Shown: one piece after another, positions 3,081 through 36,741 of the stretch
Layout of the letters: each line of letters starts with the position of its first letter
Position numbering within the stretch: position 1 is the stretch's first letter
Source: Spizellomyces punctatus DAOM BR117
Taxonomy: Eukaryota
Assembly (NCBI GenBank): GCA_000182565.2
Contig: KQ257461.1
Length of the DNA: 64,000 bases
Strand: one strand, 5' to 3'
Translations under genes and position numbers: made by a program
Notes under the pieces: generated by a model
What the model was told of the DNA's origin: nothing
Seen by the model: only the letters and a program-made list of their open reading frames with translations
Database searches by the model: none

Positions 3081-3154
3081 CTTGCTTGTTATGGCTGACG
3101 TTTTGCAGAGCAAGCAATTTGGTCACGAAAAAAGTATCGGACGATCATACATTA

Positions 3155-3225
3155 TGCATTGGCCGAGAATCGAACTCGGGTCTACCGCGTGGCAGGCGGT
3201 AATTATACCACTAAACCACCAATGC
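3155..3225 (-). tRNA. tRNA-Gly (anticodon GCC), intronless, 71 nt
   Basis: The reverse complement GCATTGGTGGTTTAGTGGTATAATTACCGCCTGCCACGCGGTAGACCCGAGTTCGATTCTCGGCCAATGCA has an acceptor stem, D loop, GCC anticodon and GTTCGATT T-loop. Confidence 0.95.
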
Positions 3226-3921
3226 ATGTGTTTATGCAGATCGGTGTAGTATACAAATGTTTTGTCATTGTCTGCTGTTGTCTCTCAACGGGCACCTCGC
3301 ACGAGATGTTCTTTACTAGGAAACTACGCTTTGCACAAGGAACATGCAGTAATGAAGCAGAACTCACAAATGGGCTTCAGAACAGCGGTCATTGGTTACA
3401 GATGGGATGTGCGTTTGACGCACGTAGATGCGGGAACAGAGGGAGGCACACTCGCAGGACGTAGCATCTACATAGGTGGAGATACATGAATGTCCATATA
3501 CAAACATCCAAACGGAAGTACTATGGACGAGAGTAAAAAAGGTATCTCCGGCTCGAGAATGCTGATGGCCAATCCTCTACATAAATGCATTCCCGCCAAC
3601 GCACCCGTTGCAAAAGTGCGAGCAAAATAGATATACAATCCGCAAAACAAAGACAGAAGGGATTTCCCCTTATCCCTAGAGTGATGTCGTTTGCGATACA
3701 TGACGCTCAGCTACTATCAGATCGCAGCGCGATGATCTCGTATTTGCGAATTAGTTACTCGGAACAGCAGGAACGACACCGCAATTCTTACTGTGAATGC
3801 TTGATATGCATCAGCATTATCCTCATCAAGTAAAGTGCAAGTGTAAAAAAAAAACTATGAATGGCATACCGCGTTCACCATGCGAGTTGTGGGAATTCTA
3901 AAGCATCAAAGATGCAGAGAA

Positions 3922-27362: not shown

Positions 27363-30359
27363 CTACTGGCATGTAGTCGCTTCACCTCCAACCAGACCGT
27401 CGGGCATAGCAAGCATTCGTTTTTTCAAATTACTCAAAAACTCATCACTAATCCCTTTCTCCAAGTCGCCTTCATCTCCCCCCACAAATGTCTTCATCCA
27501 TTCCTCTGGATTTTCGGAATTCAAACAGGCTTTCCCTTTCATGACCCCCTTGTTGATGACCTGGATGACATCAGCCATGAGGCGACACGCAGGTAGCCGT
27601 TTACCCAAGGCACGCAAAAGTTTGAGGACGCCAAAGAGGTTTTGTTGGGCGGCACTGCATGCCTCCGGCTCGTCTCGAACGCATGCGAGAGCCGACGACA
27701 TGATCAAGATAATGCCCGCTTCAAAAAGCCCCATGGCGGGAAGAAACGTTCCGTAATCCGAGGCCACCCCATCCACTCCACTGATGCTATTGGGGGCCAC
27801 GAGTCGCTGGGCTAAACTACCCAAATCATTGGCTGCTTTTTGAGCTACCGCAATAGCCCTGACACCCATTGGATGTTTCAAGGGACTCAAAAAGGCGGCT
27901 ACCATTCTCGGTCGATAGAGGAGACACATGGCGCCTTGATATAGCATGTAACATGTCACAGCGTGAATTGATGGTGGATCGTCGGAAGCAGGCGATAGCG
28001 CATACGAGTATCGACTTTCAACCAGACGTATACTTGACGGCAAGGTGTGAAACCAGTTCTCCATTTCCGCCTCTAGCACAGTGAGAGCCGGATCCACCGC
28101 GTTGAAATCTACGCCGTCACGGAGAGCTTGACGATTATATTCTACCGCCTATAGGAATCGCCCATCATCAGTACATTGGCAATATAATTTCGGCTGCTAA
28201 TTGGCTGTAGCAAACGTATACCTTAGAATAAATATCCATAAAGCGGAATCCCTTCTCAGCCCATGCCACGTAGCTGCCTCCCTCCATTTGTGGCGGAAGT
28301 TTTCCAATGGCATCCGCGGCTTCCCAGATGGCATCGGCCACGGGGTACTTGACGCTCCCCGGATTTCCCCTAAAAAAGGGTGTCCTCGACAAAACCGTGT
28401 TCTTGATCCTAAGTATCCAGAAGTGGATCAGCTATGAGGTTGATAGACTGTAAAAACCCATGACATCCTTACAGTTCCATCGTGTAAACACACCACCACG
28501 TGCGGCGCCTACTTTCGGCCTCTGCCCAATTTGTTATTCCCAGATCGTCCGGCTCCACGTCCAACCTGATAAACTGCGCCATCCGACATGCCATGCCCAA
28601 GTACATCCAAGCCGTTGACATCAATCCCTGCGCTAAAATGACGATACGCAAATTCGGTGGTCAACAACTCGTCAATCATTTCAGGTTGCATCACCAAGTT
28701 GGCAAACTCACTTATTGATGCTGAAGCAAGGAACAAAATTCCTTGCAAACCGCTCAACGTCGGACACTCCACATGCACAGAAATCAGTTTTCTGGCTCTG
28801 GCATAGAAAAAGGCAAAGGAATTGCGTACAAGCTCGTCACTGGATGCACGGCATGTGGCAGCATACAATGCAAACAAAAGCATCGGCGATTCTTCATGGA
28901 TGTTGCGCATGAGCGTTTCCTTGTGAAGGAAATCAAAGGGTAGAAACGCGGCCCTTCGGCTATCATCAATTACCGTCAGCACCATTTCAGAAGAATCATC
29001 AGGGAAAAAAGGTACGGCACTACGACATACCTAAAGTACAGTTCAAGTAAGTCATATCGTACAACAACTTCATGCAAGTCTGGTAGCATGTCGGACGGGG
29101 GAGGTGGTGGTAAGGCTGGTTGCTGTTGATGCTGAATTGCCGCCGGCTGCGTAATTTTTAAGAAGCGCAATCGATTTGCAAGGTCGCAAAACCATGTTTT
29201 CGAAACGGTCACCGCCGCAGCAACTGATTGAAGATCCATAGGTGGCCCCGGTGGCCCGTCGCTGACCAATTCCATTTCCGAGTCTTCTCGGTCAAACTGT
29301 GTGGCGGGAGAGTTGTGGGGTGACGGCTCGTTGCTCAAGTGACCTGGTTCTTGTTGGGGTGATGGCTCGTTGCTCAAGTAACCTGGTTCTTGTTGGGGTG
29401 ATGGGGACGTTTCAGGCACCGGGGGAGGGGAGCTCGTCGATGATGACGATGAACCCGCAATAGCGGTAGCAAGCATCGCTTCCAAGGCATTCACCCTGTC
29501 CTCAAGTGCCTTCATGTCCCCACCTCGGCGTTTCTTTTCTTTACACTCATTTTGATCACCATTTGCGCTCATCAGTGCAGCAGCTGCCGTCGGATTATCG
29601 GCGTAATATATACACTGTCTCGGTCCTTGCGGAGATCGGGCGCATGTTGAACAGTGAGGCCGCACTCCGTCACATCGGAGCTTCTTGGCTCGACAGGGCT
29701 CTGAAAGAATCGACAAAGACAAGGATTAGTCTTCCATCTCCCCATGGTGCACATGAAGGTAAGCGACAATTACCGCAAGCTTTTCTTCGGGTAGATACGG
29801 GAGGTTTTGGTGGTTTAGAACTATCGCCACTCATAGATTTTCTCTTTGATGAGCCAGAAGTCGGTGGTTTGTCACTGCCAGCATTTGAGACTTTGGGGTT
29901 GCAGTCAGGGCCCAGAGACCGAGCATGCGGCACCGGTAGAGGGTCGTCCTGCGAATAGAGATTCCGCGTTAGCCAGTCTGCCACTTTCAGTTGTCGCACA
30001 CTTCTCAATTTCGCATTCCATCTCATTACCTCCATAGATTGTGCTGCATTAACCCAGTCAAAGCCAAATTCAAACTCCGTCGCTGCATCACCAAAGTGGA
30101 AGTCAGGACCAGCTGCTCGTGTTCCTGCCAAAGGGCTGACGTCTCCAGACATATTTGGAATAGGGGCTGTAGGGGGCGTTCCATCGCTATTAAGCAGTGC
30201 CGCAAATGAAGAATGATCGTCAACAGTGAAAACGGGAGCGAAATCGAGGGAGAAGGAACTGATATCAAAGTCCGACGTCAGGGGAAGGTTAAAACTGGCA
30301 TCTGATCCTAAAGCAGCAGCTACAGAATCGGGAGGGTATCTCAGTGGAAGATAGTCCAT
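27363..30359 (-). CDS. Zn(II)2Cys6 transcription factor with fungal-specific middle homology domain, multi-exon
   Basis: After removing intron 29773-29701: RRKACEPCRAKKLRCDGVRPHCSTC...C. Middle-domain motif AWMYLGMACRMAQ...EAESRRRTWWCVY. Confidence 0.92.
29316..29403 (-). repeat. 39-bp intragenic tandem duplication (PSPQQEPG[Y/H]LSNE)
   Basis: Two near-identical units within the Zn2Cys6 ORF. Confidence 0.85.
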
Positions 30360-30539: not shown

Positions 30540-31509
30540 TTACAGTTCATCTCGTCCCCCAGGTATGGACTTTACACCGACTCCGCTGTCAAAGCGTCTT
30601 TCAACGTCTGTCCAGTTGACCACCTGCCACCATGCGCTAATGTAGTCCTTGCGTTGGTTTCGGTACTGCTCAACAAAAAACAAATCGTCCGTGCGCAATG
30701 GTCGAAACCCCCGTTACCAACTTTTCCTTGGATCAAAGAATGTAATTGGCCTTTACGTACCTTCAAGTAATATGCATGCTCCCAAATATCTAAAGCTAGC
30801 ACAACCGTCATGTTTCGTCCTTCATAACCAGGTGCAAACTGTGGTACATCTTGATCTTTGGTGACAATGATATCTACTTCATTGGTATCCGGAACATAGC
30901 ACAAAAAAACCCATCCGGACCCAAAGACCGACAGTGCTGCGTTGGTGAAGAGCTGAGTGAAGTTGGATATTGTGTGATACTGCGTGTGTATGGCAACAGA
31001 AAAGGAACTTCCGGGAGAAGGTTGCCGGTTCTCCGAGAGGGGATTCGGGGCGAGATTTGCAAAGTAGATCTTGTGGTTTACTGATGAGAATAGCGTAAGA
31101 TTGTCACTTGCGCATTTTCATTCGAGCATCTCGCGGTCATTTTTGGCTCACCATAACCACCGCCATTATTCCTAATATCTTTCCGAATAGACTCGTCACC
31201 CCACCATCGCGCCCGTTCAACATCACCAGCCTCTTCCAGCGCCAACCTGTTCAACAATGCTTCCACAGTAATCTCTCCTTCATCCTTTAAAGCTCCTTCA
31301 CTGTCAAGTTTTGCCAGTGCGGCGTTCAAATTGTTGGTATATGCTCTGTGGTGTCGGTCGTGATGTATCAGCATGGTCTCAGCATCCAAGTGCGGCTCAA
31401 GTGCATCGTGGGGATACGGAAGAGGCGGAAGGTCATATTGGGGTGCGGTGGTGGCTAGCACAGGCGCAACGAGTACGTAAAAGAGAATGCAGTGGAGGGC
31501 GTTCATCAT
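30540..31509 (-). CDS. Fe/Mn superoxide dismutase (Mn-type signatures) with signal peptide and C-terminal RDEL; introns 31151-31081 and 30760-30666
   Basis: LPPLPYPHDALEPHL, HHDRHH, NNGGGYVNH, VFGSGW, KDQD and DIWEHAYYLKY. The last exon ends ...SIPGGRDEL*. Confidence 0.92.
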
Positions 31510-31893
31510 GATCTTATCTCATAGGTCCGTACTGTGCTGTAGGATAACTCTACTTGCCTGTAACACAAGATGACCAAGCAACGCGATCACCTCAGCTTCC
31601 GTTGAGTAAGAACCTGAGCAAGATAGTTTGCGGGCAGCGAAATCTGCTGCTGGAAGCAATACATGTTGACGCTTGCTCCCAATAATTTGGAGATTTGTGA
31701 CCGTGTGAACAGGTTATCGAACATTAATCGATGATACTCTTTTGATCACGTTTGCATGATATCCTACGACGAGGGCCTAGACGATGTGGCAGACAATAAA
31801 CACAAACTATATATTATATACGCAGAAGCCTGCACATTCTTGCTGCAGGAATGCAGCAGCAGGTGTCCATAACCCACAATACAAATCTCTCCC

Positions 31894-34800
31894 TTAAAAC
31901 GTCTGCGAAATCCGATGTCCTCTCTGCACCCGACTAATACGCCATTCATTAGGCTTCTCATACCGGTTAAACAAAGGTTCCAATCGCTCTTGTCGTTTCC
32001 GTTTACTAATCTTATTCGCATCCGCAGTTTTGAAAAATGCAGGAGCGACTTCCACTAACCATTTTGGCTCAATAGCGACGACTTCTCTCATGTACTCTTT
32101 TGTTGTTAATACCAATTCATGGTAAATGACCCATTCGGGTTGTCGGTTGAAGAGGGCGGAAGATGGGTGAATATATACAGGGGTGGCTTCGACGAGGGTC
32201 TTATATCCTTCTTGGGGATCTTTCTTGGCAGCATGACGGAAAAATCCTCCACAGATGGCTTTTCGCACTTTATTGTAGTTCTTGCCGCAACTGACAATGT
32301 CGTGCCGGTATCGGTCCATGATCCCGAGCAACTGCTTTCGGATATCTTGAGAGCGCCGCAATGAACGGGCCTGGACAAAGTTCTCGTAACACCAGGGATT
32401 TGAGAATTTGCTGGTCTTCCATGCATTGTAGACTGACAAGAGAGTAAGATGGTCGCCTTCCGGTTGATGGAATTTTGCTTTTTTGGAGTCGGCCTGTGCC
32501 TGCTTTTCTTTTGGCCGATACCAAATGTTTTGAACCGAAAGCATCGCCACGACAGTCAAAATCTCTTCCGAACACCCCAAATCTACCGAGAAGATCAACA
32601 TCTTGGCTAGTGATGGCTCAAGAGGGAACTCGGCCATCTTTCGTCCAATACGCGTCAGCAAGCCCTCGTTGTCTAATGCACCGAGCTGGAACAATAGTTC
32701 CATAGCCGTGATCAACGTTTGAACAGGCGGGGGGTCCATGAAATCAAAGTTCAAAAGATCATTGATTCCCATGGCCTTCAACATCAACACAGTGTTTGAC
32801 AAGTTCATTCGCTGAATATCTGGCACTGCATTCGGCAGCATCTCGTTTCTATAAGCAGCCTCCGTATATAGCCTATAGCATTTTCCGGGGCCAGTTCGTC
32901 CAGCACGTCCAGAGCGTTGCCGAGCTTGAGCTTGTGAAATCGGAACGACGACAAGCGCATCCATACCAAGTTTTGGATCGTAGGTATTCTGTTTAACGAA
33001 TCCTGGATCTACCACGTAGTAAATCCCGTCGATGGTAATAGAAGTTTCCGCAATGTTGGTAGCAATGACGACCTTTCGTGCTCCCGGCGGAGCTGGCTCA
33101 AAAATACGTGACTGCATTTCAGAAGGCAACGCAGAGTAGACTGGGAGAATAATCAACTCGGGGACCATGGGCCCAAGGGCTTTCATTCGCTCGTACAGGA
33201 TCTCTGCTGCCGTGTCAATCTCTTCCTGACCAGTCAAGAACAATAGAATATCACCTGGCGGTTCAGAAAGGTGGATTTGCATAACGGTAATGAGTGCACT
33301 ATCAAGGTAATCCGACTCTGGTTCTTTAGCAAACAAGATCTCGACAGGGAACGTTCGACCAGGAATAGTCAGAATCGGACAATTGAAAAAGTATGTCGAG
33401 AACTTTTCAGCATCCAATGTAGCTGATGTGACAATAAGTTTCAGGTCGGGTCGCTGTTTGACGGTCTTCTTTAGCAGTCCAAAAAGAACGTCAGTGTGAA
33501 TGGTGCGTTCGTGCGCCTCATCCAGTAGAAGAACCGAGTACTTGCTCAGCTTGGGATCGATCAAGCATTCACGAAGAAGCATACCATCCGTCATGTACTT
33601 GATTTTGGTTTCAGGGCTCGTGCAGTCTTCAAAACGTATCGTGTACCCAACCTCCTGACCTAATCTGCACCCCACCTCTTCAGCAACGCGCTTTGCAACT
33701 GACATGGCTGCGACACGACGCGGCTGAGTGCATCCAATCATGCCCCGGTTGGCAAAACCTTCTTCAGCAAGATATTGTGTCATCTGGGTAGTCTTTCCGG
33801 ATCCGGTATCTCCAACAACAACAAGGACCTGATTCTCATCCACAGCTTTGACAATGGTCGAACGAAGTTTAAAAATTGGCAGTGATTCTCGTTGCTCCGT
33901 GATCGATAGACTCGTAATCTTTCCAAACGTGGTAGCGTTATTGAACGTTTTCTTCTTCCATTCTGGAACATTATCTTCAGTTCTGCCAAATCCTTTCAGA
34001 TCTTGTGCAAAGTGTCTATCTGACCGGTCAGCCATGGGATCCACCCATGGTCTGTTGAGATCTTTCGGAACAGCATCATACTCTGCTGCTGCCTGCTGCT
34101 GCCGAATCTCCCTCCGTTCTTTGGCCAAGGCTGCCCCAGCCAAAGCCGCTCGGTTCATTGTTCCATCAGGGTTCTTTACAATCTTGATAGGACTAAGTTG
34201 CACACTCTGCTTTGTTTGCCCTTTTAGGAACGATGGTTCTTCGTCCCTAATCTCAATATCCAATTCCTCCTCGGCGTCCTCATAATTTAGCAATCCTTGA
34301 TCTTCATCAAAAGTAGGGTATTCTTTCGGATCGAGCACACCGGATGCAATGAGCTGTTTGATCTCCCATCTTTCTGGAGATGATATACGTTTTACATTTG
34401 GCGTGTGGGTATCGATATCATCCACTACAGGTACTTCGCTAAAAGACGTCAGAATCGGTCGATCAGGATTCCGCATTGCCTCGGCTGCTAGTTCCTCTTT
34501 GGTCTTGATCCTTAAGTGAGGAGTGAGATCCCTTCCACTTTCTTGGTCCACGTCTTTCATCGACAGCCCGATCCTGTTTCCAGCAATAGTCATCACCTTA
34601 ACCTTTACTTTTTGGCCTTTTGAGACGACATCGGACGGATGGACAACCCGCCCAGGGCCAGCCGATAAATTGCTTATGTGCACCATTCCTTCCGCGCGAC
34701 CTCTGATCCCCTCCAGACTAACAAATGCACCAAAGTCCCTAACACCGCTGATTTTTCCATTGTAGATTTTGTAGAGCAGGGGTTCATCATCCAGCCCCCC

Positions 34801-35430
34801 ATATCCCCGATCGCGGTCACGACCTCGGCCCCTGTCCCGCCCCTCATCTCGTCGTCGTGGACTGCTATCCCTTCGACTGCGTTTTGGACTCCGACTACGG
34901 CTTCTACTTCCTTGCCGCTTATATCTACCGGAGCTTTCTCCGTCACCCCTTTTTTCCCTTGCGTTCGCCTCGTCCTTTTTTGAGTGCAAGAACCCTTCCA
35001 ACTCTGCAAGAACATCTTCCGCGACTTTGGTGTCCTCTACCAATTGACTTGCTCTGGTTGGATCATCTGGTATTGCTAATCCAGGAAACTTTGCGAGCTT
35101 CAGCGTCCTATCTTCTCCGTCATCCTGTTCCCAGTCACCACCATTTTCTTCAGGCAACTTTCCCTTTCCTTTTTTCCCCTTCTTTTTCTTCCCATTGCCT
35201 TGGGGTTTCAAGGTTCGAATTAAGCGATCGAGATTTGTCACAAACGATTGAGGGAATTCAGCACCGACATTGTCCAAGCTCTTTTTGAAGTCTTCGACGC
35301 TTTTTGACTGTCCGTGCAGGTCGATAATAAACTCAGCAAGAACCTTGTCGTTGATTCCAGTGTGGTTGAGAAGTTCGCTCGTAATCTTTGATACAAGGGA
35401 GAGATGTTCAAGCTTTTCCAGATCGGCCAT
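31894..35430 (-). CDS. PRP22: DEAH-box pre-mRNA splicing helicase Prp22/DHX8
   Basis: RS-rich region, S1 domain, [25 protein letters not shown] and C-terminal [16 protein letters not shown] in a single 1178-aa ORF. Confidence 0.97.
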
Positions 35431-36741
35431 GCTGGGCTAATGGGCGATCAAGGTCCTCGGCTGCTGCAAGAACAACCACTGCGCACACTGTCCACACACA
35501 CACCAGGTTTTCATGCATGACTGTGCCTGTTTACTATGGCTACGCCGCCCATGGATGACTGTGCACTTCATCACCGAATGTTGCCAAGGAAACAGGCTTT
35601 GAATGGGGGCTGCCGATGCGTCGGGCGGTGTTTGGGAGGGTCAACAACTTTCATCACGCGACGTCGTGTTGTGCATCCCCATGGGGGTCAACGTTTTGTG
35701 TTTTGACTTGTCTCAAAACGATGAGTTCATTCCAATTGATCGTTTGTTGGCGTATGGCCCAAAGACCAATGGGGATGGGGGGAGAGACCCTGGGCATCCT
35801 TGAACCATCGTCTTTGGGTGGTCGATGAGACGTACGCAACAAGAAAAAAGACAAGCGGCCCTTTCAATAGCGAACAAGGTGAAATCATATCGTCGGGTGA
35901 CCCGGGGAGACCCTTTGTCCTGTTGAATGGTTCTGTTTTGTTAAAAAGTCAGACAGGAACATTACCACATTTGCGTTTTGTTTATCTTGAAAAGTCACAC
36001 TTGTTTGGGTGGTATGACTGCGAATAGAAGACATTTAGATATTTAATGTGCATGAACCTTTTATCCTTGTGCCCTTTTTTGTCCCATTCCTGCCGTCATC
36101 GTCACTAATCGTCGTCATCATATCCTCTTCGTTCATCGTCGTCGTTGTCGTCGTTCAATAAAAAGAACACCGGCAATAATCTTATAACTAAGCTATATTG
36201 GTCAATATTCAAAATTTAAGGCTTTTGGCGCCGCCCCCCCCCCCCCCCTTTTCGCCGCCGTTTCGTTCAAACAACTGCAACTGCGCTCTCGCTTGCCAAC
36301 AGATTTCCAGCTTTTTTTTTTTGTTAAAGAACACTACACGATTGCCTCAACCAACCACACATAACAACCAACATCGACTTTTGGATATTACCAGTAACCA
36401 GTCGTCCTATTCGTTACGCTGATCCGAACCGATTCACGCCACCGGCATAAACAAAGCACACCTACTGTTTTTGAGGTAAGCATGGCCTGCGATCTGAGTG
36501 GAGCATGTCGAGAGTGAGCAATGGTGGGCTATAGAACTCATCTTGGTGGCGTAGGGATTGGGAGGCTCCTTGTCTGGGGAGATCTGCATGGGTGGGGAAG
36601 TCACTGGCATGCTGTCAACTTTCCTCTTGCTAACGATCCTTGGCTTTAGGTGAAACAGAGAGCGTTACGACCTTCCCTGTCATTGTAGCCTTGACGATAC
36701 CTGGCGTCCGGCAGTGCATGCGTGGGTGCTCATAAAGGCCA

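Follow-up and report, generated by a model that had tools for sequence, protein, structure and literature searches.

Does the endoplasmic reticulum (ER) of a chytrid fungus harbor a superoxide dismutase (SOD) of its own? The question is raised by a gene in a 64,000-nucleotide stretch of Spizellomyces punctatus DAOM BR117 (assembly GCA_000182565.2, contig KQ257461.1; hereafter the window), which lies on the minus strand at 31509..30540. Reading of this strand and translation of its pieces yields three exons, and splicing their coordinates by script produces an in-frame coding sequence of 804 nt encoding a protein of 267 aa. From the DNA letters, the original prediction had proposed that this protein is an Mn-type Fe/Mn SOD retargeted to the ER by an N-terminal signal peptide and a C-terminal RDEL. 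Our analyses support this proposal: RDEL is retained in the spliced product, the leader does not resemble a mitochondrial presequence and homologues carry both signals. We consider it probable that the gene encodes a soluble, active Fe/Mn SOD of the Mn type (possibly cambialistic) that resides in the ER lumen, an assignment suggested by the combination of a SOD core, an uncharged leader, a predicted flexible RDEL tail and the recurrence of this arrangement among further chytrid lineages.

Homology searches were run using either single exons or the nearest orthologue as the query. This orthologue, a 'hypothetical protein' of 266 aa from Spizellomyces sp. 'palustris' (P0005), was the nearest protein in a collection of 5.8 billion; it presents 92% identity to exon 1, and 246 of the 267 aligned positions are identical overall. 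When P0005 was used to search all 1.84 billion representative proteins, 13321 matches were obtained at E <= 1e-3.

The hydrophobic leader claimed by the original prediction is present and spans residues 1-19 (MMNALHCILFYVLVAPVLA; 31453..31509, minus strand). It contains 0 Lys/Arg, 0 Asp/Glu and 0 Ser/Thr, its nine-residue Kyte-Doolittle means peak at 2.9, and its hydrophobic core comprises 16 residues, with V-L-A preceding the likely signal-peptidase site after Ala19. The leader falls outside the SOD domain, as the alignment with solved structures begins at residue 24 of P0005, and in the chytrid orthologues, too, Ala closes the leader core and the position two before it is occupied by a small or aliphatic residue. 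On physico-chemical grounds, these features fit a signal peptide. A mitochondrial presequence, the other assignment contemplated at the outset, was considered and rejected, given that this uncharged and hydrophobic segment is neither amphipathic nor Arg-rich and is devoid of basic, hydroxylated and acidic residues.

At the opposite end of the protein, the RDEL codons (30543..30554, minus strand) directly precede the stop codon and encode a C-terminal tetrapeptide of the ER-retrieval type, so that the announced ...GGRDEL ending is indeed found in exon 3. In an AlphaFold2 model (mean pLDDT 87.5, pTM 0.85), computed for the 92% identical orthologue P0005 and not for the window protein itself, the 14 residues past the domain are coil with pLDDT <50, the lowest confidence in the model, which is consistent with RDEL being located on an accessible, flexible tail, as a retrieval signal requires. 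The three sequons listed by the original prediction (NFT159, NMT209 and NWT243) are likewise present in the window protein, but they lend no weight to a lumenal life, since shuffled sequences contain a mean of 1.58 and as many as 20% of 5000 shuffles contain at least three.

Both signals were also found in homologues, as the original prediction had suggested should be checked. Besides P0005, leader and K/H/RDEL are kept in the best three non-self representatives, which present a hydrophobic leader followed, at the C-terminus, by KDEL in Boothiomyces macroporosus (P0081, 48% identity to P0005), RDEL in P0082 (50%) and HDEL in Synchytrium microbalum (P0083, 42%). In the alignment of these four chytrid proteins the D, E and L of the tetrapeptide are invariant, whereas the preceding linker varies in length and sequence. 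Conservation of this type of ending among orthologues at <=50% identity indicates that the RDEL tail is more than a chance occurrence, and the apparent interchangeability of KDEL, HDEL and RDEL among them suggests a broad, animal-like receptor specificity. One partial record, from Gorgonomyces (P0232), lacks an xDEL ending and is an exception to this conservation.

The association between both signals extends to a larger sample, composed of 341 full-length proteins chosen as the nearest relatives of the window protein and not as a random sample of SODs. When these were classified by leader length, twin-arginine pattern and hydrophobicity alone, an x[D/E]EL ending was present in 13 of the 75 relatives with a hydrophobic leader and in 0 of the 266 others (Fisher p = 1.2e-9, a value that ignores relatedness among the sequences). 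The latter comprise relatives with twin-arginine-like leaders (0/89), without a leader (0/114), with other leaders (0/37), and those in which the search pattern missed the motif at the start of the domain (0/26).

Taken together, these features suggest a mechanism in which the leader would direct co-translational import via Sec61, followed by cleavage after Ala19, and in which the mature protein of ~28 kDa would fold in the lumen as a dimeric SOD of the bacterial type and acquire Mn2+ from the secretory-pathway pool. Molecules escaping to the Golgi would be returned through RDEL by the Erd2/KDEL receptor. The enzyme would then dismutate lumenal superoxide to yield H2O2 and O2, thereby protecting the folding compartment and supplying H2O2 to lumenal users of peroxide. 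This superoxide would likely stem from NOX or ferric-reductase-type enzymes, the electrons of which exit on the lumenal side, and from oxidative folding through leakage. NOX enzymes have been described as largely ER-located in Podospora and Botrytis, whereas in Neurospora their main sites are vacuoles and the plasma membrane (PMC6702951).

Several observations weigh against residence in the ER lumen or against parts of this mechanism. The N-terminal region of the leader is devoid of the positive charge that is usual in signal peptides, recognition of RDEL by a chytrid Erd2 is assumed, the number of sequons is no higher than expected by chance, and the rule by which the protein is assigned to the Mn type, detailed below, would still be compatible with cambialistic or Fe use. 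Furthermore, the Entophlyctis homologue (P0231), the leader of which is short, ends in KSEL, and two close paralogues, P0086 from Synchytrium and P0084, have neither leader nor xDEL, indicating that targeting is probably labile within the chytrid clade. Proteins bearing KDEL are, moreover, able to leave the ER (PMC6702951). Lastly, SOD2X, a clade of 18 metazoan sequences introduced as 'a predominantly endoplasmic reticulum localised MnSOD' (Hewitt & Degnan 2022, PMC9524095), is assigned by DeepLoc to the ER in 10 of 18 cases, with 5/18 predicted to be extracellular and 3/18 lysosomal or vacuolar.

According to the most probable alternative, the enzyme would be mainly secreted, cell-surface or vacuolar, RDEL would provide partial or regulated retention, and the substrate would be extracellular or post-ER superoxide. 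A fungal precedent is PaSOD2 of Podospora anserina, the primary description of which, known to us through the papers citing it, is reportedly that of Zintel et al. 2010. PaSOD2-GFP has been placed in the perinuclear ER and the enzyme termed 'ER-located and presumably secreted' (PMC5119060), and elsewhere 'either ER-associated or secreted' (PMC8868140). The DeepLoc assignments of SOD2X outside the ER and the presence of KDEL proteins outside this compartment point in the same direction, and the conclusions of the SOD2X paper call the clade 'predominantly extracellular' (PMC9524095). Nonetheless, four chytrid lineages have preserved K/H/RDEL as their very last residues in spite of linker divergence, a pattern that would be hard to explain were retrieval unimportant. 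PaSOD2 is also a poor guide to the chytrid enzyme, because the C-terminal peptide used to raise an antibody against it, as given in PMC9605262, ends in ...TKL, and PaSOD2 therefore probably has no xDEL. We thus regard a mainly secreted or post-ER enzyme as unlikely and retain residence in the ER lumen as the preferred interpretation.

Pfam searches identify the N-terminal alpha-hairpin domain Sod_Fe_N (PF00081; 31201..31440, minus strand) in exon 1, at residues 24-103, with 76.7 bits against a curated cut-off of 27 (2e-21), and the C-terminal alpha/beta domain Sod_Fe_C (PF02777, cut-off 20.9), which is divided between exon 2 (64.9 bits, 7.8e-18) and exon 3 (27.8 bits, 2.7e-6). All metal ligands are kept, as had been claimed: His49, within Sod_Fe_N, together with His122, Asp217 and His221, occupy invariant columns of the family alignments. 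The same is true of the gateway pair His53/Tyr57, also in Sod_Fe_N, of the active-site Gln196 and of Trp219-Glu220 in the DxWEH motif, and these ligand and second-sphere residues align to those of solved MnSODs. Among solved structures, the best sequence match of P0005 is the MnSOD 6pro_A (1.4e-44), which delimits the domain to P0005 residues 24-252. Foldseek searches with the P0005 model concur, the best matches being all Fe/Mn SODs (E ~1e-18, target-normalised TM 0.84-0.93), with the MnSODs of Geobacillus, Bacillus and Clostridioides at the top, joined there by a membrane-bound MnSOD of a cyanobacterium, represented by its catalytic part.

With regard to the metal, the NNGGG and DQD signatures invoked by the original prediction are both present, in the form of NNGGGYVNH and KDQD, Gln196 is invariant and the top solved relatives are Mn or cambialistic SODs. 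We take GGG before the second His ligand and a Gln supplied by the C-terminal domain (xQD) to be marks of the Mn type, the corresponding Gln of Fe-type enzymes residing in the N-terminal domain. The signatures therefore favor, at the level of sequence, a putative Mn-type enzyme.

A Tyr takes the place of the usual His after GGG in the window protein, and this substitution, the inserts that are particular to the chytrid clade (one of ~12 residues ahead of RNNGGG, the other of ~8 following the active-site Gln) and an identity of <=41% to every solved SOD could be read as signs of a SOD-like protein that has been catalytically altered and plays a non-dismutase role in the secretory pathway, such as metal binding or a structural function. 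We deem this highly improbable, given that the clade shows no variation in the four ligands, in the gateway pair, in the active-site Gln or in the Trp-Glu of DxWEH, that the Tyr variant following NNGGG occurs also in bacterial relatives (P0012 and P0032), and that the fold of P0005 is modeled with confidence. An active dismutase thus remains the preferred reading of the core.

All of the above presupposes that the gene model is correct. Exon 1 (31152..31509) opens with the ATG at 31509-31507 and encodes the leader, Sod_Fe_N through NNGGGY and the first base of Val120; exon 2 (30761..31080) encodes His122 and most of Sod_Fe_C, including Gln196, Asp217, Trp219, Glu220 and His221; and exon 3 (30540..30665) encodes the last 24 positions of Sod_Fe_C, a linker of 13 residues and RDEL, ending in the TAA at 30542-30540, all on the minus strand. 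They are separated on that strand by intron 1 (31081..31151; 71 nt, phase 1, GTGAGC...CATCAG) and intron 2 (30666..30760; 95 nt, phase 0, GTACGT...GAGCAG). The two GT-AG introns that had been proposed are hence borne out, both by Pfam coverage and by the sequence of P0005 at the junctions. The ATG is preceded, at a distance of 9 nt, by a stop in the same frame (ORF 31078..31518). Were intron 1 retained, read-through would stop after 23 codons, and retention of intron 2 (ORF 30572..31117) shifts the frame, with loss of both the end of Sod_Fe_C and RDEL.

The junction at 30760-30666, for which the original prediction had sought confirmation, coincides exactly with intron 2 of our model. The Sod_Fe_C profile is split precisely at this point, exon 2 encoding positions 4-78 and exon 3 positions 79-102, and because these positions are contiguous, the junction appears seamless. 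Alternative splicing that removed RDEL would consequently break the Sod_Fe_C domain. The first junction is matched by P0005, which reads NNGGGYVNHKIYF across the site of intron 1. In fact, P0005 presents the same sequence as the window protein over both junctions, the same leader and a GRDEL end, and the gene model is supported by this end-to-end match with an independent annotation in Spizellomyces sp. 'palustris'. The remark that the RDEL exon was hidden from the list of open reading frames is also accurate: the last exon corresponds to a stop-to-stop ORF of 57 aa, which falls below the usual listing limit of 60 aa. Although the model was built on homology and GT-AG rules alone, the idea that the leader and/or RDEL are annotation artefacts, the true product being an ordinary mitochondrial or cytosolic SOD, is close to refuted by the stop upstream of the ATG, the seamless domain coverage over junction 2, the same protein throughout in the independently annotated sister species, the occurrence of the same ends in other genera and the absence of any presequence feature from the leader.

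A related observation concerns P0082 (388 aa), which carries a 40-residue insert starting with 'GK' precisely between NNGGGY and VNH, that is, at the site of the phase-1 intron in the window. A G|GTAAG donor that is read through would encode Gly-Lys, and the location of the insert suggests that the P0082 gene model probably keeps an intron at this shared position.

To place the chytrid proteins among Fe/Mn SODs, we inferred their phylogeny from domain sequences from which leaders and tails had been trimmed. A first tree left out 45 of 339 proteins whose domain limits were missed by the trimming pattern; the 60-row FastTree clade, together with 25 other rows, was then analyzed with IQ-TREE (85 rows x 202 domain columns). 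The resulting tree shows a chytrid clade of nine rows (support 95/86), an animal-like clade of five rows (96/86) that includes an amphioxus 'superoxide dismutase [Mn]-like' protein with an HDEL end (P0167), and a clade of 16 rows (90/87) that includes Hondaea fermentalgiana (P0245) and whose members mostly end in K-x-E-L. These clades and a group with twin-arginine-like leaders fall within a 54-row group (90/92), the internal order of which the tree does not resolve. Forcing the chytrid and animal-like clades together, a grouping named post hoc, was not rejected (p-AU 0.823 against a quick tree). This outcome should be read as non-rejection and nothing further, because the free quick search scored worse than the constrained one, and the constrained tree lies ~19 log-likelihood units below the 85-row tree described above, which was obtained later, the AU run having been made against the quick tree only. 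The inserts before RNNGGG and after the active-site Gln are absent from the animal-like proteins. The SODs of the ascomycetes Apiospora (P0024) and Hortaea (P0316), which carry an N-terminal hydrophobic stretch, lack xDEL and are not placed in the 54-row group.

Within the chytrid clade, the tree contains two pairs of sister paralogues in which one copy has both leader and xDEL and the other neither (P0083/P0086, 100/92; P0082/P0084, 84/83), a pattern that reflects either loss of targeting after duplication or incomplete gene models. In the 16-row clade, the hydrophobic leader is followed by Q-N-L-P-L-P-P and most of the endings are KAEL, KSEL or KPEL, with KEDL in Hondaea itself; the K-x-E-L endings may constitute a lineage-specific retrieval variant. 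The Hondaea fermentalgiana record is annotated as 'mitochondrial', though its leader is signal-peptide-like. Moreover, the eukaryotic clades bearing leader and xDEL are joined in the tree by SODs with twin-arginine-like leaders, for instance P0240 from the red alga Pyropia yezoensis. This grouping, and the finding of 1gv3_A as the second-best fold match, hint that extracytosolic SODs are related to each other.

Among previously described systems, the animal SOD2X proteins share with the chytrid enzyme the Fe/Mn-SOD fold and the residues of the Mn type; their N-terminal signal peptide has a putative counterpart in the chytrid leader, and their K/HDEL end corresponds to the chytrid RDEL. They belong to the same 54-row group, P0005 and P0167 being 37% identical, and the sequence supplement of the SOD2X paper contains Mn SODs with KDEL or HDEL ends, of which the amphioxus end matches that of P0167 (PMC9524095). 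They differ in that they form a separate supported clade, whose branching relative to the chytrids is not resolved by the tree, in that both chytrid inserts are missing, and in that GSGYVWL occupies the place of the chytrid GSGWVFL; furthermore, their ER location is itself a computer prediction. PaSOD2 resembles the chytrid enzyme as a fungal, non-mitochondrial Mn-type SOD with ER localization of its fluorescent fusion, but differs from it in the presumed secretion and the probable lack of xDEL discussed above.

The bacterial dimeric MnSODs of Geobacillus stearothermophilus (6pro) and Bacillus subtilis (2rcv) are the best matches in both sequence and fold (1.4e-44, TM <=0.93, 41% identity), with ligands and second sphere identical to those of the chytrid enzyme, yet they are cytosolic and have no leader, tail or chytrid inserts. 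The cyanobacterial membrane-bound MnSOD 1gv3 and SODs with Tat leaders are of the Mn type too and are exported from the cytosol, their destination being lumenal or periplasmic. In fold, 1gv3 ranks second among the matches, and proteins with Tat-like leaders, including P0240, are found in the 54-row group, but these SODs depend on a membrane anchor or a twin-arginine leader and lack xDEL (0/89 among the relatives with Tat-like leaders). Extracellular Cu SODs, such as mammalian SOD3 and the fungal Cu-only Sod4-6, are targeted by a signal peptide and remove superoxide in the secretory or extracellular space, a task like the one proposed for the chytrid enzyme. These enzymes are unrelated in fold and metal, and are secreted or GPI-anchored instead of ER-retrieved.

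In the light of these comparisons, two statements of the original prediction require adjustment. The premise that fungal Fe/Mn SODs are typically mitochondrial or cytosolic is incomplete, PaSOD2 being a fungal MnSOD described in the ER, and the description of the lumenal system as unusual was overstated, because PaSOD2 in the ER and the animal SOD2X clade were both already in print. Searches of open-access full text returned no publication describing, for chytrids or any other fungus, an Fe/Mn SOD that combines leader and xDEL. Judged by its predicted features, the chytrid enzyme is a fungal example of the leader-plus-xDEL MnSOD type that had previously been described computationally in animals, with PaSOD2 as a partial experimental precedent, and the new element is taxonomic and evolutionary, the same putative architecture being found in chytrids and apparently in some protists.

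We know of no lumenal SOD in yeast or mammals, the organisms on which ER redox biology is based. A 2025 review describes classical antioxidant enzymes as scarce in the ER, with SOD1 undetectable or minimal (PMC12781119). Animal SOD2X is known from sequence and DeepLoc only, and the animals concerned do not lend themselves easily to manipulation. A chytrid in which this architecture recurs would provide a microbial system in which to ask whether an ER-lumen MnSOD is real, what the source of its superoxide is (NOX, ferric reductases or oxidative folding) and how Mn is delivered.

The chytrid members also bear on the question of whether this enzyme class is older than animals. A 2024 paper in MBE states that Sod2X carries a signal peptide, that the metazoan ancestor acquired Sod2X and that vertebrates, like many other lineages, have since lost Sod2X (PMC11721785). 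This statement leaves chytrid and protist MnSODs with leader and xDEL out of account, and the chytrid and apparently some protist members fit poorly with the metazoan origin as printed. As a tentative alternative, which we would rate as somewhat doubtful, an ER-lumen SOD may have been present in the opisthokont ancestor or in an older eukaryote, having been kept in chytrids, aquatic animals and some stramenopile-like protists (the K-x-E-L clade) and lost in Dikarya and vertebrates. If this were true, the ancestral ER would have possessed its own superoxide dismutase, and the notion of an ER devoid of classical antioxidant enzymes (PMC12781119) would be a consequence of the choice of model organisms.

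The gene appears to be native to this genome. Its GC content (0.49) and GC3 (0.50) are close to those of a neighboring helicase ORF (0.48 and 0.48), and a foreign origin was rejected on the strength of this composition and of the two spliceosomal introns; the presence of a housekeeping neighbor is likewise in keeping with a native gene. The neighbor in question is a Prp22-like DEAH-box helicase (31894..35436, minus strand), an uninterrupted ORF of 1180 aa with S1, HA2 and OB_NTP_bind domains, and 385 nt separate its stop codon from the start codon of the SOD gene downstream. Directly downstream of the SOD gene, the minus strand contains an ORF (29670..30356) that is Ser/Pro-rich, presents a Cys cluster near its end and has no Pfam match at E <= 0.001. 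ARAGORN predicts a single tRNA in the window, a tRNA-Gly (GCC) at 3154..3226 on the minus strand.

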